The notes: generated by a model not told the origin, from the sequence alone. A DNA stretch of 64,000 nt from Actinomycetes bacterium (GCA_038246545.1 JBBRVW010000025.1:3864-67863), one strand, 5' to 3'. Shown: positions 16,746 to 42,078, counted from the first letter of the stretch. Program-made: numbers and translations.

Positions 16746-16823
16746 CCGGCCGAAGGAAATGCCGGGACGGCCCCGGGCGCGATGGTCAGGTTATGTGCAG
16801 GTGCGGTCGTGGACCTTGGCCTC

Positions 16824-17615
16824 ATGACTGCTACCAGCACCGTCACCCGTCGCGGCCAGATGCTGAACAAGGTTCCCGAAGTCACGGTGTACTTCTGGAT
16901 CATCAAGGTCCTGTGCACGACCGTCGGAGAGAGCTTCGCCGACTACATCAACGAGACGCTGGGGTTCGGGCTGGCGAAGACGACCATCGTGTTCTCGGCC
17001 GCGTTGGTCGTCGTGCTGGTGGCGCAGTTCCGGGTGCGTCAGTACGTGCCCGGCATCTACTGGCTGGCTGTGGTGCTGATCAGCGTGGTCGGGACGCTGC
17101 TGACCGACAACCTCACCGATGGCCAGGGCGTGCCGCTGTGGCTCAGCAGCACGGTGTTCGCAGTCCTGCTCGCCGCCGTGTTCGGCGTCTGGTACGCCCG
17201 CGAGGGGACGCTGTCGATCCACACGATCGTCACGACCCCACGGGAGGCCTTCTACTGGCTGACCGTCCTGGTGACCTTCGCGCTCGGTACTGCCGCCGGC
17301 GACTGGACCCTCGAGCTGACCGGCTGGTCCGCCGGCGCGGCAGTCCTGCTGCCCCTGGGGCTGATCGTCGCGGTGCTCGTGGCGTGGAAGCTCGGCGCCG
17401 GCCCGGTGCTGTCGTTCTGGCTCGCCTACATCCTGACCCGCCCGCTGGGTGCCAACATCGGCGACTTCCTCGGCTCGCCCCGTTCGGACGGTGGGCTGGG
17501 TCTGGGCACCTTCGGCACGAGCGTTCTCTTCCTCGGCACCATCCTGGCCGTGGTGGTCTTCCTCAGCGTCACGCACAGGGACCGGACCGAGACCGCCCGC
17601 CCCGCCGTCGACTGA
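16824..17615 (+). CDS. Integral membrane protein (COG4705-like, repeated YxWxxxxxTxxGxxxGD-type segments)
   Basis: The ORF opens at 16782. ATG 16824 is chosen and the start is uncertain. About 8 hydrophobic segments. Repeated motif TVGESFADY / ALGTAAGDW / TRPLGANIGDF. Confidence 0.7.
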   Translation: MTATSTVTRRGQMLNKVPEVTVYFWIIKVLCTTVGESFADYINETLGFGLAKTTIVFSAALVVVLVAQFRVRQYVPGIYWLAVVLISVVGTLLTDNLTDGQGVPLWLSSTVFAVLLAAVFGVWYAREGTLSIHTIVTTPREAFYWLTVLVTFALGTAAGDWTLELTGWSAGAAVLLPLGLIVAVLVAWKLGAGPVLSFWLAYILTRPLGANIGDFLGSPRSDGGLGLGTFGTSVLFLGTILAVVVFLSVTHRDRTETARPAVD

Positions 17616-17618
17616 CCC

Positions 17619-18086
17619 ATGCCCGTTCTGCTCGCGAAAGGTCGCCATCCCATGCCAGACACGCGCACGGCCCGGATCCTCGTCGTCACCGACAAGGCCG
17701 CCCCCACCCCGGAGCTGGTCGCCGCGATCGGCGGACGCGCCGCAAGCGGGCCGGCCCAGTTCCGGGTCGTCGTCCTCAACCCCACGCGTGCCGAGCTGCA
17801 CCTGCTCCACCCCGAGCGGCATGACAAGGCGGCCGAGGCCGAGCAGGCCCTGCATGCGGCGCTTCCGGACCTCCAGCTGGCCGCGGGCGGCCCGGTGATC
17901 GGTTCCGTGTCGGTGCGTCACGACCCCATGGACGCGGTCGAGGAGGCGGTCTTCAGCGAGCCGATCGACGAGATCATGCTGGCGGTCCCGGAACACCATC
18001 TCGCCACTCGCCTGCACCAGGATCTCCGGCACCGACTGCATCACCTCGGGCTCCCGGTGACCGTGGTCGCCCCGGTCCCGGTCTAG
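17619..18086 (+). CDS. USP-like (adenine-nucleotide alpha-hydrolase-like fold) small protein, paralog 1
   Basis: 155-aa ORF (alternative ATG at 17652). ARILVVTDKAAPTPELVAAI...LLHPERHDKAAEAEQAL...VSVRHDPMDAVEEAVFSEPIDEIMLAVP. Fold assignment is by eye only. Confidence 0.65.
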   Translation: MPVLLAKGRHPMPDTRTARILVVTDKAAPTPELVAAIGGRAASGPAQFRVVVLNPTRAELHLLHPERHDKAAEAEQALHAALPDLQLAAGGPVIGSVSVRHDPMDAVEEAVFSEPIDEIMLAVPEHHLATRLHQDLRHRLHHLGLPVTVVAPVPV

Positions 18087-18147: not shown

Positions 18148-18642
18148 GTGGTGGCGTCGGTGGTGCGGCGCCTCGGTCGCGGTGTCACGATGACCGGGGT
18201 GAACACCGTCGTCATCGAGGGCAGACCGCCCAGAGTCCTGGTCGTGACCGACAAGACCGTGGCCACGTCGCAGCTCATGGCCGCGATCCGGGACCGCGCC
18301 GCCCGCGGACCCGCGCAGTTCCGTCTGCTGGTGCCCAACCCGGCTGCGGCCGAGGTCCACCTCCTCCACCCCGAACGGCACGACAAGGCCGACGAGGCCG
18401 AGCTGGCTCTGCTCGAGGCGCTGCCCGCCATCGAGGCGGCCGCCGGCGGCCACGTCGTCGCCTCGGTGTCGGTACGCCACGACCCGATGGACGCGATCGA
18501 GGCGGTGCTGTTCGACGAGCCGGTCGACGAGATCATCCTGTCGGTGCCGAGCCACAGCGTCACGCGCTGGCTGCATCAGGACCTGGCGCACCGGCTCCGG
18601 CACACCGGGTTGCCGGTCACCGCGGTGGAGGAGCTGCCCTGA
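18148..18642 (+). CDS. USP-like small protein, paralog 2 (tandem duplicate of 17619..18086)
   Basis: 164-aa ORF (alternative ATG at 18190). PRVLVVTDKTVATSQLMAAI...LLHPERHDKADEAELAL...VSVRHDPMDAIEAVLFDEPVDEIILSVP aligns colinearly with paralog 1. Confidence 0.65.
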   Translation: MVASVVRRLGRGVTMTGVNTVVIEGRPPRVLVVTDKTVATSQLMAAIRDRAARGPAQFRLLVPNPAAAEVHLLHPERHDKADEAELALLEALPAIEAAAGGHVVASVSVRHDPMDAIEAVLFDEPVDEIILSVPSHSVTRWLHQDLAHRLRHTGLPVTAVEELP

Positions 18643-19285: not shown

Positions 19286-20042
19286 CGCGACCCAGCCGGA
19301 CTGGTCGCCCGACGGGCGCACGATCGCCTTCGAGCACGACCTGCCTGACGACGCCGGGGCCGAGATCGCGCTCGTCGGCTCGAACGGCGGGCCGGTGACG
19401 CCGCTGTCGAAGGATGTCTGCGTCAACGGGCAGCCCGCCTTCTCGCCGGACGGCGAGCGACTGGCATACGAGTCCTATGACTGCGGCACGGACGATGCGC
19501 TCTACTCGCGCGACGTGAACGGCAAGGCCATGGATCGCCTCACGCCGGTCGCGTCGCCCGACGGCTACACCGACCCGAACTACTCTCCGGACGGCCGACG
19601 GCTGTCGTACGTCGAGTACAAGAACGGCATCGAGTTCCAGCAGGCGCTCGTGGTGGCCCGCGCCGACGGCAGCCACCCGCGTCGGATGACGCCGTACTCG
19701 TTCGACGTGGGGATCAAGCAGGCCTGGTCGCCCAGCGGCCGGCAGCTTGTGTTCACCAAGAACGCCGACCCGATCAAGGGCGGTCCGCTCGAGGCGGACG
19801 TCGCGGTCATCGGTGCAGACGGCAGCGGCCTGCGGGTTCCTACCCATTACCGCGGTGGGCGGCTCAGCGCCTTCGCCGGCTCGTACTCGCCGAACGGCCG
19901 GTGGATCGTCTACCGGCTGCAGAACAACCAGACCGGCCGGTCGGCGATCTGGCGGATGTGGCCGGACGGCAGCCACCGGCAGATGATCTTCGAGCGGGAG
20001 GGACTGCGGGCCCGCGGCATCGACTGGGGCGCCCCATCCTGA
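19245..20042 (+). CDS. TolB-like beta-propeller (PD40/WD40-like repeat) protein, apparently lacking its N-terminus
   Basis: 265-aa ORF with repeated xSPDGxxxa blades (WSPDGRTIAF, FSPDGERLAY, YSPDGRRLSY, WSPSGRQLVF, YSPNGRWIVY). No signal peptide. Credible sequence begins about 19285. Confidence 0.6.
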   Translation: MRPQARCRRRTASDATQPDWSPDGRTIAFEHDLPDDAGAEIALVGSNGGPVTPLSKDVCVNGQPAFSPDGERLAYESYDCGTDDALYSRDVNGKAMDRLTPVASPDGYTDPNYSPDGRRLSYVEYKNGIEFQQALVVARADGSHPRRMTPYSFDVGIKQAWSPSGRQLVFTKNADPIKGGPLEADVAVIGADGSGLRVPTHYRGGRLSAFAGSYSPNGRWIVYRLQNNQTGRSAIWRMWPDGSHRQMIFEREGLRARGIDWGAPS

Positions 20043-20078
20043 CCCGGCGAGCCGGACGAGCGCGACATCTCGGGACGC

Positions 20079-20134
20079 CGGGGCGCCGGACCGCAGGTGG
20101 ACCTCGTGCGGAAGCCTAGGTATCCGGCGCCCCG
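20079..20134. terminator. Hairpin between convergent genes (12-bp stem CGGGGCGCCGGA / TCCGGCGCCCCG with an inner 5-bp stem)
   Basis: Perfect 12-nt inverted repeat 20079..20090 / 20123..20134. The loop contains CCGCA...TGCGG. It lies between the TolB-like stop (20042) and the regulator stop (20144). No U-tract. Confidence 0.4.
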
Positions 20135-20143
20135 CCTACCGGC

Positions 20144-20404
20144 TCAGGCGAGGGACATGAAGACCTTCTCGAGCTTCTCCCGGTCCACCGCGCCGTCGTC
20201 CCCGGCGCGGATGCACTGCTCCAACCCGGCGGCGATGAGCGCGAACCCCGCCTTGTCCAAGGCTCTCGACACGGCGGCCAGCTGGGTGACGACCTCGGCG
20301 CAGTCGCGCTCCTCCTCCAGCATGCGCAGGACGCCAGCCAGCTGGCCCTGCGCGCGCTTGAGCCGGTTCACCACCGGGCCGACGGTCTCTCGGTCTAGCT
20401 CCAC
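20144..20404 (-). CDS. CsoR/RcnR-family metal/persulfide-sensing repressor, CstR-like x-C-x-C fingerprint
   Basis: 86-aa ORF with a GTG start preceded by GGGAAGG. VVNRLKRAQGQLAGVLRMLEEERDCAEVVTQLAAVSRALDKAGFALIAAGLEQCIRAG. Cys35 and Cys64 are present. Gly60 sits where Cu(I)-CsoR has His. Confidence 0.9.
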   Translation of the reverse strand: MELDRETVGPVVNRLKRAQGQLAGVLRMLEEERDCAEVVTQLAAVSRALDKAGFALIAAGLEQCIRAGDDGAVDREKLEKVFMSLA

Positions 20405-20422
20405 GACGACTACCTTCCCTCG

Positions 20423-20438
20423 ATACGCACCAGGGTAT
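20423..20438 (-). promoter_or_regulatory. CsoR-family operator-like site ATACCCTGGTGCGTAT (minus-strand reading), 18 nt upstream of the regulator start
   Basis: ATAC-N8-GTAT with a C/G-rich core. Related to the two identical sites at 22642 and 22765. Confidence 0.6.
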
Positions 20439-20444
20439 CCATGC

Positions 20445-22616
20445 TCAGTGGCTGAACCGGATCGACGGCAGGACCCGGCGCAGCCACGCGGGGCTCGCCC
20501 ACGCGGCCCGTCCGGTCAGGCGGAGCAGGACCGGCAGCAGCAGCAGGCGGACCAGGGCGGCGTCGAGCAGGACGGCGACACCGAGGACCACGCCCATCTC
20601 CTTGGGCGGCAGTGGCCCGGACAGGGCGAAGGTGAAGAACACGGCCACCATGACACCGGCGGCGGCGAAGATGACCCGGCCCGAATGCGCGAGCCCGCCG
20701 ACCATGGCCTCCCGCGGGTCGTTCGACTTCTCCCAGTGCTCCTTGGCGGACGCGAGCAGGAAGACGGTGTAGTCCATCCCGATGGCGAAGATCATCGCGA
20801 AGAAGAAGACCGGCGCCCAGGCGTCGAGATAGCCCTGCGGCTCGAAGCCGAGCAGGCCGGAGCCGTGACCGTCCTGGAACACCAGCCGGGCGACACCGAA
20901 CGCCGCCCCGGTGGCCAGCAGGTTGGTCAGCGTCCCGAGGGCGGCGACGAGCGGTGCCTGCAGGACGAGCAGCAGCAGCAGGAAGCCGAGCGCGAGGACG
21001 ACGCCGATGACGAGCGGGGTCTTGTCGGCGAGCAGCCGCTCCAGGTCGTGGTTCTCCGCGGACGGGCCGCCGACCAGCGTGCCGACGGGGAGGTCGGTGC
21101 GGAGCCGGTCGATCGTGTCGCCGAGCGCGGCGTCGGACGGGCCTACGGTCGGCACGGCGGAGAGCAGGGCGTGGCGGCCACTGCCCTGCACGGGTGGCAT
21201 CACCGCCGCGATGCCCGGGTCACCGGCGAGCACCGCATTGGCGCGGTCGGCCTGCCCGGCCGGTGCGACGACCTGCAGGGTCCCGGGCGCGCCGGTGCCG
21301 AACGCGTCCTGCACGAGGCCGTAGCCGACCCGACTGGAGTCGGCCTCGGGCACGACCTTGATGGAGGGCATCCCGGTCCGCAGGCCGAGGACGGGCGCGG
21401 CGAGCACGGCGAGGGCGACCGCGGCGAGCAGGCCGTAGCCGACCGGCCGGCGCCAGAGCCGCTGGGCCCACCGCTCGAACCGGGGTGACCGGTGCTCGCC
21501 GGCGTGCACCCCGGGGAGAGCGAGGGCGTCGACGCGGTGCCCGAGCTTGCCCAGGACGGCGGGGAGAAGGGTGAGGGTGGTGGCCAGGACGAAGGTGACG
21601 GCGAGCATGATGCCCAGCGCCATCGAACGGAACGCCGGCGACGGCACGAGCATCACCGCGGACAGTGACACCAGCACGGTCAGGCCGGAGAAGAGCACGG
21701 CCTTGCCCGCGGTGTCCATGGTCTCGGCAACAGCGTCGCGGGACCTCTCGTGCTGCCCGAAGCGAGCGGCGCGGAACCGAACGACGAGGAACAGGGCGTA
21801 GTCGATGCCCAGCGCCAGCGCGAACATCATCGCGAAGTTCATCGCCCAGATGCTGATGTCGCCGATCTGCGAGCCGAGGTAGAGCGACCCGGCCGCCGCG
21901 ACGAGGCCGACGATCGTGAGCATCAGCGGCAGCCCGGCCGCCACCAGCGACCCGAAGGCGAGGACGAGGATGACCATCGTCACCGGCCAGCTGACGACCT
22001 CGCTCTTCATCATCGCCTCGAGGTTCGCTGCGTTGAAGTCGCTCCACAGCGCGGAGGACCCGGTCAGTGCCACCTCGACCCCGGGGCCGCTGAGGTCGCG
22101 CAGCGGGGCCTTGAGGTCGTCGGCGGCGCGCACCATCTCGTTGGTGTTCGCGTCGGCGGCCCCCGCTTGGACGAGTGCCGTCCGGCCGTCCCGGGAGATG
22201 CTGGTGCCCGGTTGCGGCACGACGACCTGCGAAACCCGGTCGTCGGCGCGCAGCAACGCCACGGCCCGGTCCACGGCGGCCTGGCCGCGACCGGCGGTGA
22301 CGGTGCCGGAGTCGACGTGGACGACGACCTGCAGCGCGGCGCTGGACAGCCCGGCGAACTCGCGCTGGACGACATCCCGGGCAGCCACCGACTCCGACCC
22401 GGAGGCCTCCCAGCCGGCGCCGGCGAGGGCGTGCTCCACGCGGGGCGCGAACGCGCCGAGGGCGACGACGACCAGCAGCCAGGTGACGAAGACGGCGCGG
22501 GAGTGGTCGACGGTCCAGCGGCCGAGCCGGCCCAGCGGGCCGACCGCGGCAACAGCCCCGCCGGCGGCCCGGTTCGGGCGGCTGGCGGTGGAGCGAGTGG
22601 GCAGTGCGGTGGTCAC
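20445..22616 (-). CDS. MMPL family (RND superfamily) transporter
   Basis: The long ORF reaches 22685, but GTG 22616 has a GAGGA 7 nt upstream and leaves the operator outside the CDS. There are two 6-TM bundles separated by soluble loops. Typical MMPL text LGIDYALFLVVRFR and GMDYTVFLLASAKEHW. Confidence 0.9.
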   Translation of the reverse strand: MTTALPTRSTASRPNRAAGGAVAAVGPLGRLGRWTVDHSRAVFVTWLLVVVALGAFAPRVEHALAGAGWEASGSESVAARDVVQREFAGLSSAALQVVVHVDSGTVTAGRGQAAVDRAVALLRADDRVSQVVVPQPGTSISRDGRTALVQAGAADANTNEMVRAADDLKAPLRDLSGPGVEVALTGSSALWSDFNAANLEAMMKSEVVSWPVTMVILVLAFGSLVAAGLPLMLTIVGLVAAAGSLYLGSQIGDISIWAMNFAMMFALALGIDYALFLVVRFRAARFGQHERSRDAVAETMDTAGKAVLFSGLTVLVSLSAVMLVPSPAFRSMALGIMLAVTFVLATTLTLLPAVLGKLGHRVDALALPGVHAGEHRSPRFERWAQRLWRRPVGYGLLAAVALAVLAAPVLGLRTGMPSIKVVPEADSSRVGYGLVQDAFGTGAPGTLQVVAPAGQADRANAVLAGDPGIAAVMPPVQGSGRHALLSAVPTVGPSDAALGDTIDRLRTDLPVGTLVGGPSAENHDLERLLADKTPLVIGVVLALGFLLLLLVLQAPLVAALGTLTNLLATGAAFGVARLVFQDGHGSGLLGFEPQGYLDAWAPVFFFAMIFAIGMDYTVFLLASAKEHWEKSNDPREAMVGGLAHSGRVIFAAAGVMVAVFFTFALSGPLPPKEMGVVLGVAVLLDAALVRLLLLPVLLRLTGRAAWASPAWLRRVLPSIRFSH

Positions 22617-22641
22617 GAAAGCGTCCTCACAACAGTCGAAG

Positions 22642-22657
22642 ATACGGGTGGGGGTAT
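22642..22657 (-). promoter_or_regulatory. CsoR-family operator-like site (plus strand ATACGGGTGGGGGTAT = ATACCCCCACCCGTAT on the MMPL strand)
   Basis: Perfect reverse complement of 22765..22780. Lies 25 nt upstream of the MMPL GTG. Confidence 0.7.
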
Positions 22658-22685
22658 ATTGAGCCGTCGGGAAGACGTTCGTCAA

Positions 22686-22701
22686 ATGCCCAGCGGGGTA
22701 T
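22686..22701. promoter_or_regulatory. Degenerate third copy of the operator-like motif (ATGCCCAGCGGGGTAT)
   Basis: Shares the GGGGTAT half and the 16-nt spacing with neighbouring sites. The left half is ATGC instead of ATAC. Confidence 0.35.
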
Positions 22702-22764
22702 TGGCTACCTCACATCGGACCGCGGAATCACCGGTCGCCACGCGAGGTTGGGAACGTGGTCCTG

Positions 22765-22780
22765 ATACCCCCACCCGTAT
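22765..22780 (+). promoter_or_regulatory. CsoR-family operator-like site ATACCCCCACCCGTAT, 17 nt upstream of the rhodanese GTG
   Basis: Identical 16-mer in inverted orientation to 22642..22657. Immediately precedes the SD AGGAGA. Confidence 0.7.
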
Positions 22781-22797
22781 CCACGAGGAGAGCGCAC

Positions 22798-23142
22798 GTG
22801 TTCCAGCGCACCACCATCGCCGAGACCAGCCTGGACGACTTCGCCGCTGCTCACGCCACGGGCGCGGTCACCGTCGACGTCCGCGAGCCCCACGAGTACG
22901 CCGCGGGTCACGTGCCGGGCGCGGTCAACGTCCCGCTTTCCCAGCTCGGCACCCGCGTCGGGTCGCTGGCCCGCGACAGCAAGGGCGCGCCGGTGTTCGT
23001 CATCTGCGCGTCGGGCAACCGCAGCAAGGCAGGCGCTGGGCTGCTCGTGAAGGGTGGCGTGGACGCGCGCCCCGTCGCGGGTGGCACCGCCGCCTGGATC
23101 AGCGCCGGGCCCTCGAACGTCGCCGGCTCGCGCCGCGGCTGA
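22798..23142 (+). CDS. Single-domain rhodanese sulfurtransferase
   Basis: The ORF opens at 22756. GTG 22798 is preceded by AGGAGA. Active-site loop VICASGNRSKAG. HVPGAVNVP rhodanese signature. Confidence 0.85.
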   Translation: MFQRTTIAETSLDDFAAAHATGAVTVDVREPHEYAAGHVPGAVNVPLSQLGTRVGSLARDSKGAPVFVICASGNRSKAGAGLLVKGGVDARPVAGGTAAWISAGPSNVAGSRRG

Positions 23143-23158
23143 GAACGGAGGACACGAG

Positions 23159-24544
23159 ATGACACAGCTCGACCTGCACATCATCGAGACGCCGTCGCTG
23201 GGCGACCGCAGCTACCTGCTCACCGACGGCGACCTCGCCCTCGTGGTCGACCCGCAGCGCGACATCGACCGGGTCCTCGACCTGGCCGGCGAGCTCAGCG
23301 TCCGGATCGTCTCGGTCGCGGAGACGCACGGCCACAACGACTACGTCTCCGGGGGTCTCGAGCTGTCCCGGGCTGCCGGGGCCGAGTACCGGCTGCCGGT
23401 CGCCATGGGCGCCGAGTACCCGCACACGGCCGTCGGCGACGGCGACACCTTCGACGTCGGCGCCCTGCGCGTGACGGTCCTGCACACCCCGGGCCACACC
23501 CACCACCACGTCGCCTACGCCGTCGCCGTCGGTGACGGCCCGGTCGAGGCGGTGCTCACCGGCGGCTCGATGCTGTTCGGCGCCACCGGGCGCACCGACC
23601 TGGTCGGCCCCGAGCACACCGACGAGCTCACCCACGCCCAGTTCCGCTCTGTGCGGCGGCTCGCGAGTGACCTGCCGCCCGAGGCGCAGGTGCTCCCGAC
23701 GCACGGGTTCGGCAGCTTCTGCTCGGCCACCCCCACCTCGGGCGACTCGTCCACCGTCGCCGAGCAGCGCACCAGCAACCCGGCGCTGACCCAGGACGAG
23801 CAGTCCTACGTCGACCAGCTGCTCGCCGGGCTGGACGCGTTCCCGGCGTACTACGCGCAGATGGCGCCGATCAACCAGCGCGGCCCGGCGCCGGTCGACC
23901 TCACCCCGCCGGTCGCCGTCGACCCGGCCGAGCTCCGACGACGGCTGGAGGCCGGCGACTGGGTCGTCGACCTACGGGACCGGACGGCGTTCGCCGCCGG
24001 TCACCTCACCGGCAGTCGCAGCTTCGAGCTGAGCACGAACTTCGTCACCTACCTGGGCTGGCTGCTCCCGTGGGGCGCCCGGTTGACCCTGGTCGGGGAG
24101 AGCGAGGAGCGGGTCGCGGACGCCCGCCGCGAGCTGGTGCGCATCGGGGTCGACGAGCTGGCCGGCGCCGCCGTGGGACCCCTCGACGCGCTGGCGGACG
24201 GTCGCCCGCTCCGGTCCTATGTGGTGTCGGACTTCGCCGGGCTTGCCGCCCGCCTGGCCGACGACGGCGTCGGCCCGGTGCACGTGCTGGACGCCCGACG
24301 CAACGACGAGCACCGCGAGGGTCACGTGGCCGGCTCGCTGCACATCCCAGTGCACGAGCTGGCGGCCCGCCTCGACGAGATCCCCGACGGCGAGGTCTGG
24401 GTGTACTGCGGTTCCGGCTACCGCGCCGCCATCGCAGCCTCCCTGCTGGACACCGACGGTCGGACCGTCGTGCACATCAACGAGGACTACGCTTCGGCCG
24501 CGGAGGCCGGGCTCGAGGACAAGCCGGCCACCGCCTCCGGGTGA
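23159..24544 (+). CDS. MBL-fold hydrolase fused to two rhodanese domains (CstB-like persulfide dioxygenase-sulfurtransferase architecture)
   Basis: ATG 23159 lies inside ORF 23054..24544. Metallo-beta-lactamase motif [11 protein letters not shown], then HTPGHTHHH. The middle rhodanese has no Cys. The C-terminal rhodanese has [12 protein letters not shown]. Confidence 0.85.
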
Positions 24545-25320
24545 GCGTCGTCGCAGGATGTGGGCTGCTCATCGGCGTCCTGCTCGGCCTGCTCGGCGCC
24601 GGCGGCAGCATCCTCGCCGTCCCCGCACTCGTGTACGGCGCCGGCCAGCCGCTGAGCTCCGCGGTGCCGACCTCGCTGCTCGTCGTCGGCGTCTCCGCCG
24701 CGGCCGCCGTCGTGGCGCGGGTGCGGGCCTCGCAGGTGCAGTGGCGCATCGCCGCTGTGGTCGGCGGGTCCGGCATCCCGGCGGCGTTCGCCGGGACCGC
24801 CGTCAACCGGGCACTGAACCCGCGGGTCGTGCTGGTCGGGTTCGCCGTCGTGATGGTCGTCGCGGCGGTCCGGATGCTGCGGGAGCAGCCTGAGGCCGGC
24901 GGCGCCTGCGCGCTCCCGGACGGCGGGGTGAACTGGCGCGGCTGCCTGCCCAAGGCGGTCGGGACCGGTGTTGCGGTCGGTTTCCTGACCGGTCTGTTCG
25001 GTGTCGGGGGCGGGTTTCTCATCGTCCCGGCGCTCGTGCTGCTGCTCGGGCTGCCGATGACGGTCGCGGTCGGCACGTCTCTGCTGGTCGTGGCCGTGAA
25101 CTCCGCGGCCGGCCTCGCCGCGCACGCCGGGTCGGCGGACATCGACTACGGGCTGGCGGCCGTGTTCACCGGCGCGGCGGTGGCCGGGTCACTGCTCGCG
25201 GCGCGGGTCGCGGCCCGCCTCCCCGCTGACCGCCTGCGCCGCTGGTTCGCGTGGCTGGTCCTCGCCGTCGCGGCGTTCGTCGCGGTCCAGGCGCTGGTGA
25301 ACCCCGGCGCCGGTGCCTGA
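24541..25320 (+). CDS. TauE/SafE family sulfite/anion exporter
   Basis: GTG 24541 overlaps the preceding stop (GTGA). 259 aa, about 8 TM segments, duplicated [16 protein letters not shown] / [16 protein letters not shown] motifs. Confidence 0.85.
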
Positions 25321-25356
25321 CCCTCGACGGGCCGACGCGTCGCGCACAACCGCCGG

Positions 25357-25773
25357 TCAGACGGCGTTGGTGAACTCCACCTGCCAGCGCAACTCGGACC
25401 TGTCCTCTGCATGCCACCACTGCGTGAGGACGCCGGTCTCGCCGCCGGGGAGGATGACCAGACGACCGAGGTCGTCGTCATTCGGCCAGCCGTCCTCGAG
25501 GCGCACCTGGTCACCGTCACGGACCAGGTACGTCATTGGGCCGGACGCGCCGCGCTCCAGGCCGGCCCCGGTCGCGACCACGGACCCGTCCTCGTCCCGG
25601 ATGGTGACCTCGAGCTTCGGCGGGGCGGCGTGCACGAGTACGCGGCCACCGGCCGATCCGCTGTCCACCAGGATGCGGGCGAACGACAGCCCGGTGGCGC
25701 CAACTTCGGGTATCCAGAGGTCCCACGTCTCATCCTTGTCTGCTCGGTCCCCAGTGACAGGCGCGTCAACCAC
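25357..25773 (-). CDS. Hypothetical protein (138 aa, soluble, beta-rich composition)
   Basis: Clean protein-like composition (…WDLWIPEVGATGLSFARILVDSGS…LVRDGDQVRLEDGWPNDDDLGRLVILPGGETGVLTQWWH…). No family recognised. Confidence 0.6.
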   Translation of the reverse strand: MVDAPVTGDRADKDETWDLWIPEVGATGLSFARILVDSGSAGGRVLVHAAPPKLEVTIRDEDGSVVATGAGLERGASGPMTYLVRDGDQVRLEDGWPNDDDLGRLVILPGGETGVLTQWWHAEDRSELRWQVEFTNAV

Positions 25774-29036: not shown

Positions 29037-30437
29037 ATGAGCGAGCACTTCGACGTCGTCGTCCTCGGTGCCGGCCCCGGCGGGTACGTCGCCGCCATCC
29101 GCGCCTCGCAGCTGGGCAAGAAGGTCGCGGTCATCGAGGAGAGGTACTGGGGCGGTGTCTGCCTCAACGTCGGGTGCATCCCGTCGAAGGCGCTGCTGCG
29201 CAACGCCGAGCTGTCGCACATCCTGACCCACGAGAAGGACAAGTTCGGCATCACCGGCGACGCGTCGATGGACTTCGCACCGACGCACGCCCGCAGCCGT
29301 CAGGTGTCGGAGTCCATCGTCAAGGGCGTCCACTTCCTGATGAAGAAGAACAAGATCACCAAGATCGACGGCTGGGGCACGTTCACCGGGCCGAAGTCGA
29401 TCGACGTCACGAGCTCGGACGGCACCGTCACCCAGGTGACCGGCGACAGCGTCATCATCGCCGCGGGCGCCACCACCCGGCTGGTCCCCGGCACCTCGTT
29501 GTCCGACCGGGTGGTGACCTACGAGGAGCAGATCCTCACCGACCAGCTCCCGGGATCGATCGTGATCGCCGGCTCCGGCGCGATCGGCGTCGAGTTCGCC
29601 TACATCATGAAGAACTTCGGCGTCGACGTGACGGTCGTGGAGTTCCTCGACCGGATGGTCCCCACCGAGGACGCCGAGATCTCCAAGGAGCTGCTCAAGC
29701 ACTACAAGAAGCTCGGCGTGAACGTGCTGCTGTCGACCAAGGTCGAGAGCATCGACGACAGCGGCGACCAGGTGAAGGTCACCGTCTCCCCCGCGCAGGG
29801 CGGCGACCAGCAGGTGATCGAGACCGACAAGGTGCTGCAGGCGATCGGATTCGCGCCGCGCCTCGACGGGTACGGCCTCGACCGGACCGGGGTCCAGGTG
29901 AGCGACCGCGGCGCGATCGTCGTCGACGCCCGGGGACGCACCAACGTCGACGGCGTCTACGCGATCGGCGACTGCACCGGCAAGCTGATGCTCGCCCACA
30001 CCGCGGAGGCGATGGGAGTCGTGGCCGCCGAGACCATCGCCGGCGCCGAGACCGTCGAGATCGACTTCGACATGATCCCGCGGGCGACGTACTGCCAGCC
30101 GCAGATCGCGTCGTTCGGGTACACCGAGGAGCAGGCGAAGGAGAAGGGGTACGACGTCAAGGTCGCGAAGTTCCCTTTCACCGCCAACGGCAAGGCGAAG
30201 GGTCTCGGCGACGAGGTCGGTTTCGTCAAGGTCGTCGCCGACGCGACGCACAACGAGATCATCGGCGCGCACCTGATCGGACCCGACGTCACCGAGCTGC
30301 TGCCGGTCCTGACCCTGGCCCAGAAGTGGGACCTCACCGCCGACGAGGTCGCCCGCAACGTGTTCGCGCACCCCACGCTGTCCGAGGCTGTCAAGGAGGC
30401 CGTCGAAGGCATCGCCGGGCACATGATCAACTTCTGA
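29037..30437 (+). CDS. lpdA: Dihydrolipoyl dehydrogenase
   Basis: 466-aa [20 protein letters not shown], redox-active [17 protein letters not shown]-terminal HAHPTLSE. Confidence 0.95.
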
Positions 30438-37785: not shown

Positions 37786-38492
37786 GCGAGGACCTCCGTC
37801 GTGACCGGACCGGGGACGAGCAGGCGGGCCAGGCCGAGACCGACCGCTCCGCCGATCACCTGCGCGACCAGGAAGCCGGGCACCGAGCCCGGGGCGATGC
37901 CCGCGAAGGTGTCGGAGAAGACCCGGCCGGCCGTGACGGCCGGGTTCGCGAACGAGGTGCTGGCGGTGAACCAGTACGCCGCGCCGATGTAGGCGCCGAC
38001 GGCGGGCGCGGCCAGCGCCGCGCGGCCGGTCCGCAGCAGCAGCACGACCAGCAGGACCAGACCGGCGGTGGCCACCATCTCGCTGACGCCGAGCCGCCAG
38101 CCGTCGCGGTCGGTGGTCGCCAGCTCGGTCACGGGCACGGCGTACATCACGTTCGCGAGCACGGCCCCGGCCACCGCTCCGACCGTCTGCACGCCCGCAT
38201 ACGCCACCGCGTCCCGGGCCGCCAGCGCGCCCGGCTGCCCGCGGCTGTCGAGCCACAGCACCACGGTCACCACCGGGTTGAAGTGCGCGCCGGACACCGG
38301 CGCGAGCACCGCGATCAGCACCGCCAGGCCGAGAGCCGTGACGAGGGAGTTCTCCAGCAGCTGCAGCCCCACGTCGTCGGGCGAGAGCCGCTGCGCGGCG
38401 ATGCCGGAACCCACGACCACGGCGACCAGGAGCCCGGTACCGAGGCCCTCGGCCAGCAGCCGGCGGGGCAGCGCCGGGACCGCCGTCAGCAC
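37782..38492 (-). CDS. MIP/aquaglyceroporin family channel (AqpS-like arsenite channel)
   Basis: GTG 38492 (the ORF opens further upstream). NPV and NPA boxes GAHFNPVVT and SFANPAVT. Six TM segments. Confidence 0.85.
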   Translation of the reverse strand: MLTAVPALPRRLLAEGLGTGLLVAVVVGSGIAAQRLSPDDVGLQLLENSLVTALGLAVLIAVLAPVSGAHFNPVVTVVLWLDSRGQPGALAARDAVAYAGVQTVGAVAGAVLANVMYAVPVTELATTDRDGWRLGVSEMVATAGLVLLVVLLLRTGRAALAAPAVGAYIGAAYWFTASTSFANPAVTAGRVFSDTFAGIAPGSVPGFLVAQVIGGAVGLGLARLLVPGPVTTEVLA

Positions 38493-38842
38493 GGTCGTCG
38501 CGGGACGTCGCTGCGGCCGGCGTCGTCGAGGCGGCCGACCAGCTCGCGCAGGTCGTGCAGCGCGCCGGGCCGGAGCCGGTAGTAGACGAAGCGGCCACAC
38601 GGCTCGGTCGCGACCAGGCGGGCCTGTCGCAGCGCGCGCAGGTGGTGGGAGACCAGCGTCTGCTGGAGGTCGAGCTCGTCCTGGAGGTGGCAGACGCAGA
38701 GCGACTCGCGACCGAGCAGCTCGAGGATCCGCAGCCGGACCGGGTCGCTCACCGCCCGCATCGTCTCGGCGTCGGCCGGCGTCGTACCAGCGGCGGTTGG
38801 TGTCACCTCCGCAGGAGACACCAACCGCCGCTGGTGGGTCAA
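38486..38842 (-). CDS. arsR: ArsR/SmtB family metalloregulator
   Basis: DPVRLRILELLGRESLCVCHLQDELDLQQTLVSHHLRAL. The annotated start is a weak TTG at 38842, and a 19-bp hairpin lies inside the first 20 codons. ATG 38761 (MRAVSDPVRL...) is an alternative start. Confidence 0.8.
   Translation of the reverse strand: MTHQRRLVSPAEVTPTAAGTTPADAETMRAVSDPVRLRILELLGRESLCVCHLQDELDLQQTLVSHHLRALRQARLVATEPCGRFVYYRLRPGALHDLRELVGRLDDAGRSDVPRRPC
38786..38835 (-). other. 19-bp perfect inverted repeat with a 12-nt loop (ACCAGCGGCGGTTGGTGTC...GACACCAACCGCCGCTGGT)
   Basis: Arms are 38786..38804 and 38817..38835. It sits between the Cys micro-ORF stop and the arsR ATG 38761. It is either an intrinsic terminator/attenuator without a U-tract or a protein-binding palindrome. 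Confidence 0.6.
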
Positions 38843-39733: not shown

Positions 39734-40096
39734 GTGCCGATCTCGACCCGTCCGCTGCTGCCGCTGCTCGAGGAGCCGGCCGAGCTGTGTTGTCCGCCGC
39801 TGGCGCAGGCGCCGCTGTCCGAGGCCGACGCCGAGGAGCTGGCCTCGCGCCTCAAGGCGCTCGCCGACCCGGTCCGGCTGAGGCTGCTGTCGCTCGTGCT
39901 CGCCAGCGGCGAGGCGTGCGTCTGCGACCTCACGGCACCGGTCGGGCTGAGCCAGCCGACGGTCAGCCACCACCTCAAGGTGCTCGCTGACGCCGGGCTG
40001 CTGGCCCGCGAGAAGCGGGGCAGGTGGGCCTGGTACCGCCTGGTGCCCGGCTCGCTAGGGGACCTGGCGGCGGTGATCGGCTCCAGCGCGCGGTGA
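39734..40096 (+). CDS. ArsR/SmtB family metalloregulator with N-terminal CC and alpha3 CVC motifs (CadC/CmtR-like)
   Basis: 120-aa ORF. EEPAELCCPPLA, ALADPVRLRLLSLVLASGEACVCDLTAPVGLSQPTVSHHLKVL. Confidence 0.9.
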   Translation: MPISTRPLLPLLEEPAELCCPPLAQAPLSEADAEELASRLKALADPVRLRLLSLVLASGEACVCDLTAPVGLSQPTVSHHLKVLADAGLLAREKRGRWAWYRLVPGSLGDLAAVIGSSAR

Positions 40097-40819: not shown

Positions 40820-41608
40820 ATGACCTCCACGCTGCCCGCGGAGCGCACCCCGCGCCTGGTGTCGCGCCGGCTGCTGATGGCCGAGGTGGCCATCGTCCTC
40901 GGCCTGTCGTTGGGCCGGTCGGCCGTCTACTCCGCCGTGCACTGGGTGGAGGCGCTGACCGAACCCGGCGCGGTCGCCGACCAGGCCGCTGTCCTCAACG
41001 CGAGCAAGTCGCCCGGCCGGCCGTGGTTCGACCTCACCCTGCAGCTGCTCGGCCTCGGCTTCGGCCTGGTGCCGGTCCTGCTCGTCGGCTACCTGCTCGT
41101 CACGGGTGGCCAGGGCTGGGCCTCGATCGGGCTCGACCGGACCCGCGCCGGCAAGGACCTGGCCGGCGGCGCGGGGCTCGCGGCATCCGTGGGCGGCGCG
41201 GGGCTGGCGCTCTACCTCGTCACGCACGCCATCGGCGTCGACCTGACCGTCGTGGCCTCCGGGCTGCCGGACGTGTGGTGGCGGATCCCGGTGCTGCTGC
41301 TCGCCTCGGTGCAGAACGCGCTGCTGGAGGAGGTCGTCTTCATCGGCTACCTGTTGCTGCGGCTGCGGCAGCTCGGCGTCGGCGACCGCACCGCCGTCGG
41401 CGCGGCCGCTCTGCTGCGCGGGTGCTACCACCTCTACCAGGGGTTGGGCGGCTTCGCGGGCAACCTGGCGATGGGGTTGATCTTCGGGATCGTCTATCGC
41501 CGGTGGGGTCGGCTCGGGCCGCTCGTGGTGGCGCACACCCTGATGGACGCGGTCGCCTTCGTCGGCTTCGCGCTGCTCGCCGGCCGCGTCAGCTGGCTAC
41601 CCACGTGA
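40820..41608 (+). CDS. CPBP family intramembrane glutamic endopeptidase (CAAX protease/Abi)
   Basis: 262-aa ORF. Motif 1 ALLEEVVFIGYLL, motif 2 GCYHLYQ, motif 3 VVAHTLMDAVAF. Confidence 0.85.
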   Translation: MTSTLPAERTPRLVSRRLLMAEVAIVLGLSLGRSAVYSAVHWVEALTEPGAVADQAAVLNASKSPGRPWFDLTLQLLGLGFGLVPVLLVGYLLVTGGQGWASIGLDRTRAGKDLAGGAGLAASVGGAGLALYLVTHAIGVDLTVVASGLPDVWWRIPVLLLASVQNALLEEVVFIGYLLLRLRQLGVGDRTAVGAAALLRGCYHLYQGLGGFAGNLAMGLIFGIVYRRWGRLGPLVVAHTLMDAVAFVGFALLAGRVSWLPT

Positions 41609-42020
41609 TCAGGAGCCGTCCCCGGGTCCGCGCTGGCCCGGGGACACCGCGCAGCCAGGCCTGGTAGCCACCGGCGAGGTCCGTCGCCCGGGACAGGCCC
41701 AGCCGCCGGAGGGTGGCAGCGGCCAGGCTCGAGCTGAACCCCTGGTTGCAGACCACGACGACCCGGCGGTCGGGGTCGGACACCTCGGGAAGGCGATGCG
41801 GGCTGGTGGGATCCAGGCGCCACTCCAGCACGTTGCGATCGATGACCAAGGCCCCGGGCAGCTCGCCGTCCCGCCGGCGCTGCTCCGTCGGTCGGGTGTC
41901 GACGACGACGGCGCCGGCGGCCATCTCGGCCGCCAGCTCGTACGGTGGTACCCGGTCGAGACCGGCGCGCGCCTCGGCGAGCAGCGCGTCGATCCGGGAC
42001 TGGTGCGTGACGTCGGCCAT
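41589..42020 (-). CDS. Rhodanese-like domain protein
   Basis: ATG 42020 (MADVTHQ...). VVVDTRP...LPGALVIDRNVLEWRL...VVVVCNQGFSSSLAAATL active-site loop. Confidence 0.8.
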   Translation of the reverse strand: MADVTHQSRIDALLAEARAGLDRVPPYELAAEMAAGAVVVDTRPTEQRRRDGELPGALVIDRNVLEWRLDPTSPHRLPEVSDPDRRVVVVCNQGFSSSLAAATLRRLGLSRATDLAGGYQAWLRGVPGPARTRGRLLITWVAS

Positions 42021-42033
42021 CTGGCCCTCCGCC

Positions 42034-42052
42034 CGGAAGGTACGCCCTTCCG
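42034..42052 (-). terminator. Hairpin CGGAAGG-N5-CCTTCCG downstream of the methyltransferase gene
   Basis: 7-bp stem between 42079 (stop) and 42020 (next start). Confidence 0.3.
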
Positions 42053-42078
42053 CGCCCGCTGGCAGCAACTCGCGGTCG

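Follow-up and report, generated by a model that had tools for sequence, protein, structure and literature searches.

Predicted CstR-type operators link an MMPL-family transporter gene to a sulfane-sulfur operon in an Actinomycetes bacterium

Introduction

Can a transporter of the RND superfamily belong to a regulon for reactive sulfur species? The question is raised by a locus in a 64,000-nt stretch of DNA from an Actinomycetes bacterium (GCA_038246545.1, JBBRVW010000025.1:3864-67863; hereafter the window). Positions 20144 to 25320 hold a gene for an 86-aa CsoR/RcnR-family regulator, a gene for an MMPL-family transporter and a divergent unit encoding a rhodanese, a CstB-like fusion of one MBL and two rhodanese (Rhd) domains, and a TauE/SafE-family exporter. 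A preliminary description, made from the sequence, had read this locus as an actinobacterial cst-like regulon in which the transporter gene carries the operator of the sensor. The analysis reported here supports the membership of the transporter in the regulon, based on predicted operators conserved in related genomes and on the recurrence of the pairing in rearranged loci.

Persulfide and polysulfide signalling and detoxification form an active field. To our knowledge, the persulfide regulons described so far (CstR, SqrR/BigR, FisR and ScCsoR) comprise enzymes and anion exporters of the TauE/PmpAB type and no RND-type pump. The MMPL proteins with solved structures or NCBIfam models are mycobacterial lipid or siderophore exporters and hopanoid or sterol transporters. 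A conserved regulatory and operonic link to persulfide sensors gives one MMPL clade a testable physiological context.

Materials and methods

Two sets of related loci (labelled L001 and onwards) were used for comparison. The regulator-anchored set was obtained from a scan of species-representative genomes and consists of the 80 best relatives of the regulator (63-95% identity). The MMPL-anchored set was obtained from a metagenome scan, which gave 80 further loci (63-87% identity), and three long-contig look-ups with Pfam-annotated neighbours were made in addition. MMPL-anchored loci were taken as evaluable if they had at least 1 kb of upstream flank (52 loci), and their neighbouring genes were identified by tblastn.

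Results

Operator sites

The locus is organised as two divergent transcription units around a 181-bp intergenic region, with mmpL and the regulator gene on the minus strand and rhd-(MBL-Rhd-Rhd)-tauE on the plus strand. The 16-mer ATACCCCCACCCGTAT occurs exactly twice, as an inverted pair; even with three mismatches allowed only 0.11 matches would be expected, and two matches were seen in none of 100 shuffled sequences. One copy (O-mmpL) lies 25 nt before the GTG start of the MMPL gene (22616), which has the Shine-Dalgarno (SD) sequence GAGGAC, and the other (O-rhd) lies 17 nt before the GTG of the rhodanese gene (22798), with the SD sequence GAGGAG. The perfect inverted duplicate and both spacings had been claimed in the preliminary description and are confirmed, as are the two further sites it had named, namely a related sequence (O-reg, ATACCCTGGTGCGTAT) 18 nt before the GTG of the regulator gene and a degenerate copy (O-mid) in the intergenic region. 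The pattern ATAC-N8-GTAT has exactly three matches in the 64 kb, against zero expected, and ATACCC-N6-GTAT with at most one mismatch has four, all within the locus (0.22 expected).

Conservation of the motif was checked in orthologous loci. When the window is aligned with its four closest relatives, per-column identity amounts to 88-100% at the three intergenic sites and to 60% in the rest of the intergenic DNA; invariant columns number 42 of 48 within the sites and 25 of 146 outside them. O-mid is degenerate, yet its half-site ATACCCCG is invariant in all five genomes, and at O-reg the pattern ATACCCT-N5-GTAT is invariant in eight loci, although the flanking DNA varies there in both respects, sequence and length. 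The MMPL start GTG and its SD sequence are likewise conserved in the alignment of close relatives. The four sites have the G/C tract, the AT-rich ends and the frequent pairing of CstR operators, and their motif equals, except at one position, the ScCsoR operator ATACC-N6-GGTAT, which was validated by electrophoretic mobility shift assay (PMC7533328). In the clade of the window, the operator has a core whose coding strand is rich in C; it is non-palindromic (ATACCCC-N-CCCGTAT) and always oriented with transcription (window, L001-L007, L083, L084 and L155). Judged by these phylogenetic footprints in related genomes, the four predicted operator sites are real. Other clades carry palindromic operators, either ATACCCC-N2-GGGGTAT or TATCCCCCCnGGGGGTTA.

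A −35-like TTGACG abuts O-mid and is kept in the window, L001 and L002 only. At a distance of 18 nt, a −10-like CAATAT abuts or overlaps the first bases of O-mmpL. O-mid and O-mmpL would bracket the core promoter of the MMPL gene, and O-reg would serve either autoregulation or an internal promoter. A terminator scan of 19900-25600 returned a single terminator-like site, at chance level and inside mmpL.

Linkage of the transporter to the regulon

Neighbourhoods were surveyed for pairs of a csoR-like gene and an MMPL gene. A full-length MMPL orthologue (59-95% identity) is present in 18 of the 80 regulator-anchored loci, all of them with C-x-C regulators. The nearest relative of the regulator (95% identity) comes from a metagenome-assembled genome of an uncultured soil member of the Actinomycetota, and no Streptomyces locus is found among the 80 best relatives. 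Three arrangements recur in this set: mmpL and cstR in tandem as in the window, with all operators present (L001-L007); the pump and cstR in divergent orientation on either side of an operator (L011, L018, L026, L029 and L051); and the pump as the last gene of rhd-pdo-tauE-mmpL (L015, L024, L050 and others), where pdo encodes the persulfide dioxygenase (PDO)-like protein. In the MMPL-anchored set, a C-x-C regulator and/or PDO-Rhd, rhodanese or TauE was detected near the pump in 34 of the 52 evaluable loci.

At least six gene orders can be distinguished. Besides the mmpL-cstR tandem, rhd-pdo-tauE-mmpL, mmpL-rhodanese and pdo-mmpL-tauE (L152), there are forms with cstR in divergent orientation, that is cstR-DUF302(-thioredoxin) facing mmpL(-CMD/AhpD-like), cstR-DUF302-trx facing rhd-pdo-tauE-mmpL, and cstR-tauE-pdo facing mmpL-DUF302 (L163); L162 has ArsR-mmpL-DUF302-OsmC. 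In the operonic form, the gaps between tauE and mmpL measure 24-100 nt and contain an SD sequence and no operator or hairpin. The idea that MMPL and TauE are alternatives to each other was rejected, as both are present in rhd-pdo-tauE-mmpL operons; where TauE was missed by tblastn, a gap of about 0.95 kb has the right size for it.

Operators also accompany the pump. With operator-like sites strictly defined, their density is 1.8 per kb between −250 and +75 of the MMPL start and 0.05 per kb elsewhere in the same loci, a background that takes in the other cst promoters. The operator before the MMPL gene is kept in L005-L007, L083, L084 and L155, and also in L081, L082 and L147. A second regulator clade, 43-52% identical to the regulator of the window and with the same C/G/C fingerprint, has paired TATCCCCCCnGGGGGTTA palindromes flanking a TGnTAnnnT −10-like element directly upstream of the pump. 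Taken over all loci, the MMPL-linked regulators fall into three sequence clusters, all C-x-C. The pairing is conserved in many actinobacteria. Linkage that persists through many rearrangements, with two operator dialects and in several genera, is a classical signature of functional coupling. The comparative loci, including those with an operator before the pump and no adjacent sulfur operon, thus support the earlier proposal of a shared operator and of regulon membership for the MMPL gene. Full-text literature searches returned no paper joining MMPL to CstR, CsoR, persulfide, rhodanese or sulfane sulfur, and hence no prior description of the link that would remove its novelty.

Further genes recur in these neighbourhoods. 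DUF302, thioredoxin and a CMD/AhpD-like CxxC protein (or OsmC) are found beside cstR and MMPL in L011, L015, L092, L118, L162, L163 and many other loci; DUF302 has been reported in sox clusters and also in Arthrobacter SUL modules (PMC6305408). In about eleven MMPL-anchored loci (L085, L105, L115, L117, L120, L122, L127, L129, L130, L133 and L162), the gene before the pump on the same strand encodes an ArsR-family regulator whose last helix has a conserved C-x3-C, and some of these loci also encode a small YgaP-like transmembrane protein (weak Pfam match). ArsR at the pump may represent a non-orthologous displacement of the regulator by another thiol-based sensor. Two near-identical metagenome loci, L092 (2351-4732) and L100, have an HMA-domain P-type ATPase and a SHOCT protein beside the cstR-like gene.

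The regulator

The regulator matches PF02583 over residues 11-81 with 79.5 bits (cut-off 22.8). Its only cysteines are C35 and C64, and its sequence contains no His. In alignments with characterised members of the family, the position four residues ahead of the second Cys holds Gly60 in the regulator, Asn in SpCstR (7MQ1) and His in the CsoR of G. thermodenitrificans (4M1P) and in InrS (5FMN), which agrees with the two Cys residues and the Gly first read from the sequence. As the whole regulator lacks His, a His ligand supplied from another position is impossible. Both cysteines of the x-C-x-C fingerprint of CstR-type persulfide sensors are present, with no His at the Y position. The neighbourhood also resembles that of CstR, with a rhodanese, MBL-Rhd-Rhd and TauE in the divergent unit, as in most of the 80 related loci. 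The C-H-C ligand set of Cu(I)-sensing CsoR is absent from the regulator, and copA/copZ neighbours were not seen beside the locus in the filtered ORF list or among the scanned flanking genes.

Of the solved structures, 7MQ1 matches best (E 1e-13); it was deposited as 'CsoR' and is the persulfide sensor SpCstR of S. pneumoniae (PMC8643695). The NCBIfam models RicR, RcnR and FrmR give 29-43 bits against cut-offs of 133-175, the weak match to RicR being the best of them. In the regulators of related loci, both cysteines are retained in 113 of 113 sequences and Gly at −4 (C-G-C) in 111 of 113. The CstR-like assignment of the preliminary description therefore stands, and the evidence supports a CstR-type (actinomycete 'ScCsoR-like') thiol-based repressor, for which persulfide sensing would carry over by analogy from ScCsoR and the CstRs.

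The MMPL protein

The transporter matches PF03176 in two stretches with 245.9 bits. Its hydropathy profile has eleven peaks in a 1+5/1+5-like pattern, and it contains the Asp-Tyr proton-relay motifs GIDYALF and GMDYTVF, conserved in at least 115 of 120 sequences. As both motifs are conserved, the protein should be an active transporter driven by the proton-motive force. The nearest solved structure is MmpL3, a distant match (E 1e-46), and the protein scores under the cut-off of every named NCBIfam subfamily, with 185 vs 1400 for MmpL3, 70 vs 752 for HpnN and 196 vs 875 for actII. Its relatives bear generic names only ('MMPL family / RND drug exporter').

No Cys is present in its 723 residues. 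Of 119 orthologues, 86 are likewise Cys-free and 31 contain one Cys, in most cases at the same C-terminal column (window residue 708). A Cys-free pump would suit a thiol-reactive environment, although this is only suggestive. Since TauE is kept alongside MMPL, the substrate of the pump is probably not a sulfite-type anion. With low confidence, we predict a membrane-soluble or TauE-incompatible sulfane-sulfur species, or a product of thiol stress.

The CstB-like enzyme

The MBL-Rhd-Rhd protein can be aligned over its full length with 3TP9 (E 2.5e-61) and 3R2U (E 2e-43), and C188 and C417 align with the Cys residues of both. We take 3R2U to be a CstB-type protein of S. aureus, although its record does not name it so, and C188 and C417 are presumably the equivalents of Cys201 and Cys408 of CstB. 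The protein thus has the three domains and both functional cysteines of the CstB / type III PDO architecture.

Locus architecture and flanking genes

The features of the locus are collected in Table 1. Pfam scores of all its genes far exceed the curated cut-offs and bear out the content first assigned to the divergent operon, that is a CASGNRS rhodanese, a fusion of an MBL domain with a Cys-less rhodanese and a CGSGYRA rhodanese, and TauE. The fusion gene starts with ATG at 23159 (not 23160), and the start of tauE overlaps its end through GTGA. The stop of mmpL and the start of the regulator gene are separated by a 40-nt gap, which holds O-reg.

Table 1. Predicted genes and sites of the locus, with positions counted from the first nucleotide of the window.
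Feature	Position	Strand	Evidence
cstR-like regulator (CsoR/RcnR family), 86 aa	20144..20404	-	PF02583 E 2.5e-22; C35/G60/C64, no His
Predicted operator O-reg ATACCCTGGTGCGTAT	20423..20438	-	Motif scan; footprint in 8 loci
MMPL-family (RND superfamily) transporter, 723 aa	20445..22616	-	PF03176 E 7e-73, two halves
Predicted operator O-mmpL ATACCCCCACCCGTAT	22642..22657	-	Exact repeat; 15/16 columns invariant, 5 genomes
-10-like CAATAT, putative MMPL promoter	22661-22656	-	Read by eye
-35-like TTGACG, putative MMPL promoter	22680..22685	-	Read by eye; 18 nt upstream of CAATAT
Predicted degenerate operator O-mid ATACCCCGCTGGGCAT	22686..22701	-	Motif scan; 11/16 columns invariant, 5 genomes
Predicted operator O-rhd ATACCCCCACCCGTAT	22765..22780	+	Exact repeat; 16/16 columns invariant, 5 genomes
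Single-domain rhodanese, 114 aa, loop CASGNRS	22798..23142	+	PF00581 E 4.5e-17; resembles GlpE/PspE
CstB-like MBL + pseudo-rhodanese + rhodanese fusion (C188, C417)	23159..24544	+	Full-length match to 3TP9, 3R2U
TauE/SafE-family anion (sulfite-type) exporter	24541..25320	+	PF01925 E 1.6e-48

The genes flanking the locus are unrelated (a PD40 beta-propeller protein, DUF7712, MarR and DUF347). No SQR-like open reading frame (ORF) was found in the list of window ORFs filtered by GC content at third codon positions (GC3), on part of which Pfam was run; this is consistent with the absence of SQR noted earlier, within the 64-kb window. The sole flavoprotein disulfide-reductase-like ORF in the filtered list (29037-30437) resembles lipoamide dehydrogenase by its N-terminal motif, as read by eye and with no Pfam run. 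A multidomain CstA (Rhod-TusA-DsrE) is absent from the locus, the single-domain rhodanese standing in its place. The filtered list has no large P-type-ATPase-like ORF beside the locus, and the scanned flanking genes are unrelated to metal transport.

Elsewhere in the window, an unlinked second rhodanese-domain protein (159 aa) is encoded at 41589-42068 on the minus strand, and two ArsR-family regulators at 38486-38842 (minus strand) and 39734-40096 (plus strand); all three are without ATAC-N8-GTAT nearby. Two tandem paralogues, visibly alike and with no Pfam match (17619-18086 and 18148-18642; 155 and 164 aa), lie downstream of the DUF347 membrane protein (16782-17615).

Discussion

Proposed regulation of the locus

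We regard it as probable that the locus is governed as a whole by a CstR-type repressor acting through four sites on two divergent units, that persulfide relieves the repression, and that the MMPL gene is a member of this regulon. The reduced regulator would bind four sites of the ATACCC-N6-GTAT type, of which two would bracket the MMPL promoter, one would overlap the rhodanese promoter and one would precede the regulator gene. Bound in this way, it would repress both mmpL-cstR and rhd-(MBL-Rhd-Rhd)-tauE. Persulfide or polysulfide would modify or cross-link Cys35 and Cys64, whereupon the repressor would leave the DNA and both units would be expressed. The rhodanese, the CstB-like enzyme and TauE would then process sulfane sulfur and export the oxyanion product, and MMPL would act beside them as an exporter driven by the proton-motive force and a conserved member of the regulon. 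Persulfide sensing and repression are established for this class of regulator (PMC7533328, PMC8643695). We infer the promoter positions, the co-transcription of mmpL and cstR and the MMPL substrate.

A more specific proposal concerns what the pump does. The Cys-free MMPL subfamily might be a dedicated exporter of reactive sulfur (membrane-soluble zero-valent sulfur or organic polysulfide, or a low-molecular-weight thiol persulfide) and form, beside a variant CstB-like enzyme without the canonical Fe-binding Asp, a second, export-based branch of sulfane-sulfur homeostasis in Actinomycetota. We put this forward tentatively and consider it doubtful at present.

Several observations weigh against the proposed regulation or narrow it. 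The genome samples are phylogenetically clustered, so that the locus counts (18 of 80 and 34 of 52) do not represent independent events. Among the 52 evaluable MMPL-anchored loci, nine have an ArsR-family gene only, and another nine gave no link by tblastn. Four of these link-less loci have a CsoR-type operator before the pump (L081, L082, L147 and L157), and in one (L161) a rhodanese follows it. The ArsR pairing and the few link-less loci indicate that the pump is not exclusive to CstR control. A sigma-70 consensus scan of 19900-25600 gave no strong promoter, for which reason the overlap of operator and promoter remains inferred, from TTGACG-18-CAATAT as read by eye. The responsiveness of the regulator to persulfide is transferred by analogy from ScCsoR and the CstRs. 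The co-occurring thioredoxin, CMD/AhpD-like, OsmC and DUF302 proteins also fit a broader thiol or oxidative stress.

The metal site of the CstB-like enzyme belongs among these points as well. The window enzyme reads TGGSML where 3TP9 and 3R2U read SGDF(V/I)F, which places a Gly at the Asp of the 'GD' motif, the residue that we take, from ETHE1, to be an iron ligand. The set of residues expected of a mononuclear Fe site (HxHxD, GHT and the 'GD' Asp) is accordingly incomplete. In all 37 homologues of 47-93% identity, HxHADF is replaced by HxHNDY (HGHNDY in the window) and 'GG' is found, while Arthrobacter-type homologues (30-36% identity) have HxHADF/Y and 'GD'. The CstB-like call of the preliminary description thus holds for the three-domain architecture and for both cysteines and fails at the iron-ligand Asp; with that Asp absent, activity appears less certain than had been assumed, and the pathway may follow a chemistry other than that of the classical cst operons. 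All MMPL-linked operons in the sample are of the GG type, and no GD-type locus has a pump; since the GG and GD groups are taxonomically separated, this correlation is only a lead.

Alternative explanations

The serious alternative is that the regulator and an MMPL-DUF302-thioredoxin-CMD/OsmC module answer a broader thiol-reactive stress (oxidants, electrophiles, quinones or disulfide stress), not sulfane sulfur specifically, and that the pump exports a toxic electrophile or an envelope lipid that has been oxidised or damaged. In many MMPL-anchored loci, PDO, rhodanese and TauE genes are missing from the neighbourhood and only cstR-DUF302(-trx), facing mmpL-CMD, is present, and one locus carries ArsR-mmpL-DUF302-OsmC; MMPL proteins with solved structures move lipids and siderophores, and CstRs react with simple oxidants and tetrathionate in vitro (PMC8643695). 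However, the same MMPL orthologue group is found inside the rhd-pdo-tauE operons of many genomes, with short SD-containing gaps, the MMPL gene and the rhodanese operon of the window carry the identical 16-mer operator, ScCsoR as the nearest characterised regulator is released by polysulfide (PMC7533328), and DUF302 is recurrently tied to sulfur-oxidation clusters. We therefore judge this alternative unlikely.

If the MMPL gene were a bystander, the adjacent operator would serve only the divergent rhodanese promoter and the adjacency of mmpL and cstR would be accidental. The two promoters of the window do share one intergenic region of 181 bp, in which either site could act on either promoter. 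Nevertheless, the operator next to MMPL is kept in L005-L007, L081, L082 and L147, where no rhodanese gene was detected just upstream of MMPL, and in L155 the upstream rhodanese/PDO genes are codirectional with MMPL, not divergent. In other clades, paired operators lie directly on the MMPL promoter or MMPL closes the sulfur operon, and the linkage recurs in no fewer than six gene orders and with regulators of three sequence clusters. As far as comparison of sequences goes, the bystander explanation appears largely refuted, and we give it very little weight.

A regulator sensing Cu(I) or another metal in the manner of CsoR/RcnR, with MMPL in metal-related efflux, is extremely improbable and a copper link was rejected: Pfam and NCBIfam do name the family metal-sensing, with RicR as the best NCBIfam match, and a heavy-metal P-type ATPase adjoins the regulator in L092 and L100, but the His-ligand position is Gly in a His-free protein, the RicR, RcnR and FrmR scores lie far under their cut-offs, the neighbouring genes encode sulfurtransferases, a PDO-like enzyme and TauE, and a P-type ATPase with an HMA domain occurs in only 7 of 163 loci, adjacent in just the two near-identical ones.

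Significance

If sulfur-species export by the pump proves true, it would be the first RND/MMPL pump assigned to the efflux of sulfur species, and a widespread orphan MMPL clade would gain its first function. The conserved link also suggests that disposal of a hydrophobic or membrane-associated sulfur species may be open to cells; were this so, the enzyme-centred picture of sulfane-sulfur homeostasis would change. The analysis in addition flags a large CstB-like subfamily with an altered metal site, which co-occurs with the pump.

Comparison with known systems

The closest characterised system is that of S. coelicolor, in which ScCsoR (SCO0620; Cys37/Cys66) represses the PDO-rhodanese SCO0618, co-transcribed with tauE SCO0619 (Lu 2020, PMC7533328), as well as the rhodanese SCO0621 and its own gene. 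ScCsoR binds the 16-bp ATACC-N6-GGTAT, with two sites at the pdo promoter (PMC7533328). The window shares with this circuit the two Cys residues 29 apart (C35/C64 here, C37/C66 there), the PDO-rhodanese, TauE and the rhodanese. It differs in that the regulator gene lies downstream of an MMPL gene carrying the same operator, the S. coelicolor circuit having no MMPL, and in that the operators read ATACC-N6-CGTAT with a C-rich, non-palindromic core. The PDO-like enzyme of the window has Gly at the Fe-ligand Asp; the text of PMC7533328 gives no GD or GG type for ScPDO. ScCsoR falls together with Rv1766 of M. tuberculosis into cluster 3 of a sequence similarity network (SSN), which holds 3,175 actinomycete x-C-x-C candidate persulfide sensors and whose neighbourhoods encode sulfide/sulfite detoxification (Fakhoury 2021, PMC8643695); the main text of that paper mentions no transporter or RND protein.

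The firmicute CstR/cst operons (S. aureus cstR-cstA-cstB-sqr with tauE; E. faecalis; S. pneumoniae/S. mitis) resemble the window in the x-C-x-C fingerprint, the CstB architecture, TauE and the G/C-tract operators with AT-rich ends. Unlike them, the window has a single rhodanese for the multidomain CstA, no SQR seen within its length, and an MMPL gene. The regulators also belong to different clades, SSN cluster 3 here and clusters 4 and 10 there, with Gly at −4 in place of the Asn of SpCstR.

Mycobacterial MmpLs (the trehalose monomycolate exporter MmpL3 and the siderophore exporters MmpL4/5) share with the transporter of the window the two-fold PF03176 repeat, about 12 transmembrane segments and the central Asp-Tyr pairs. 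In contrast to them, the transporter has 723 aa, no C-terminal domain and no Cys, and is associated with a CsoR-family thiol sensor and sulfur-stress operons. No gene for an MmpS partner was noted next to it, no search aimed at MmpS having been made.

The plasmid-borne 'SUL' modules of Arthrobacter, with a CsoR-family regulator, a sulfur dioxygenase, two rhodaneses, TauE and DUF302 (Romaniuk 2018, PMC6305408), are the same kind of locus as most of L008-L080. Their extra transporter is of the MFS type, not MMPL; the MMPL reported in PMC6305408 is part of an unrelated TetR-controlled module, separate from the sulfur module. Given the S. coelicolor circuit, characterised in 2020 (PMC7533328), and SSN cluster 3, the preliminary description was right in its central inference of an actinobacterial cst-like regulon, but such a regulon had been described before. 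Its sulfur circuit has a precedent in Streptomyces, and what the present locus adds to it is the MMPL link.

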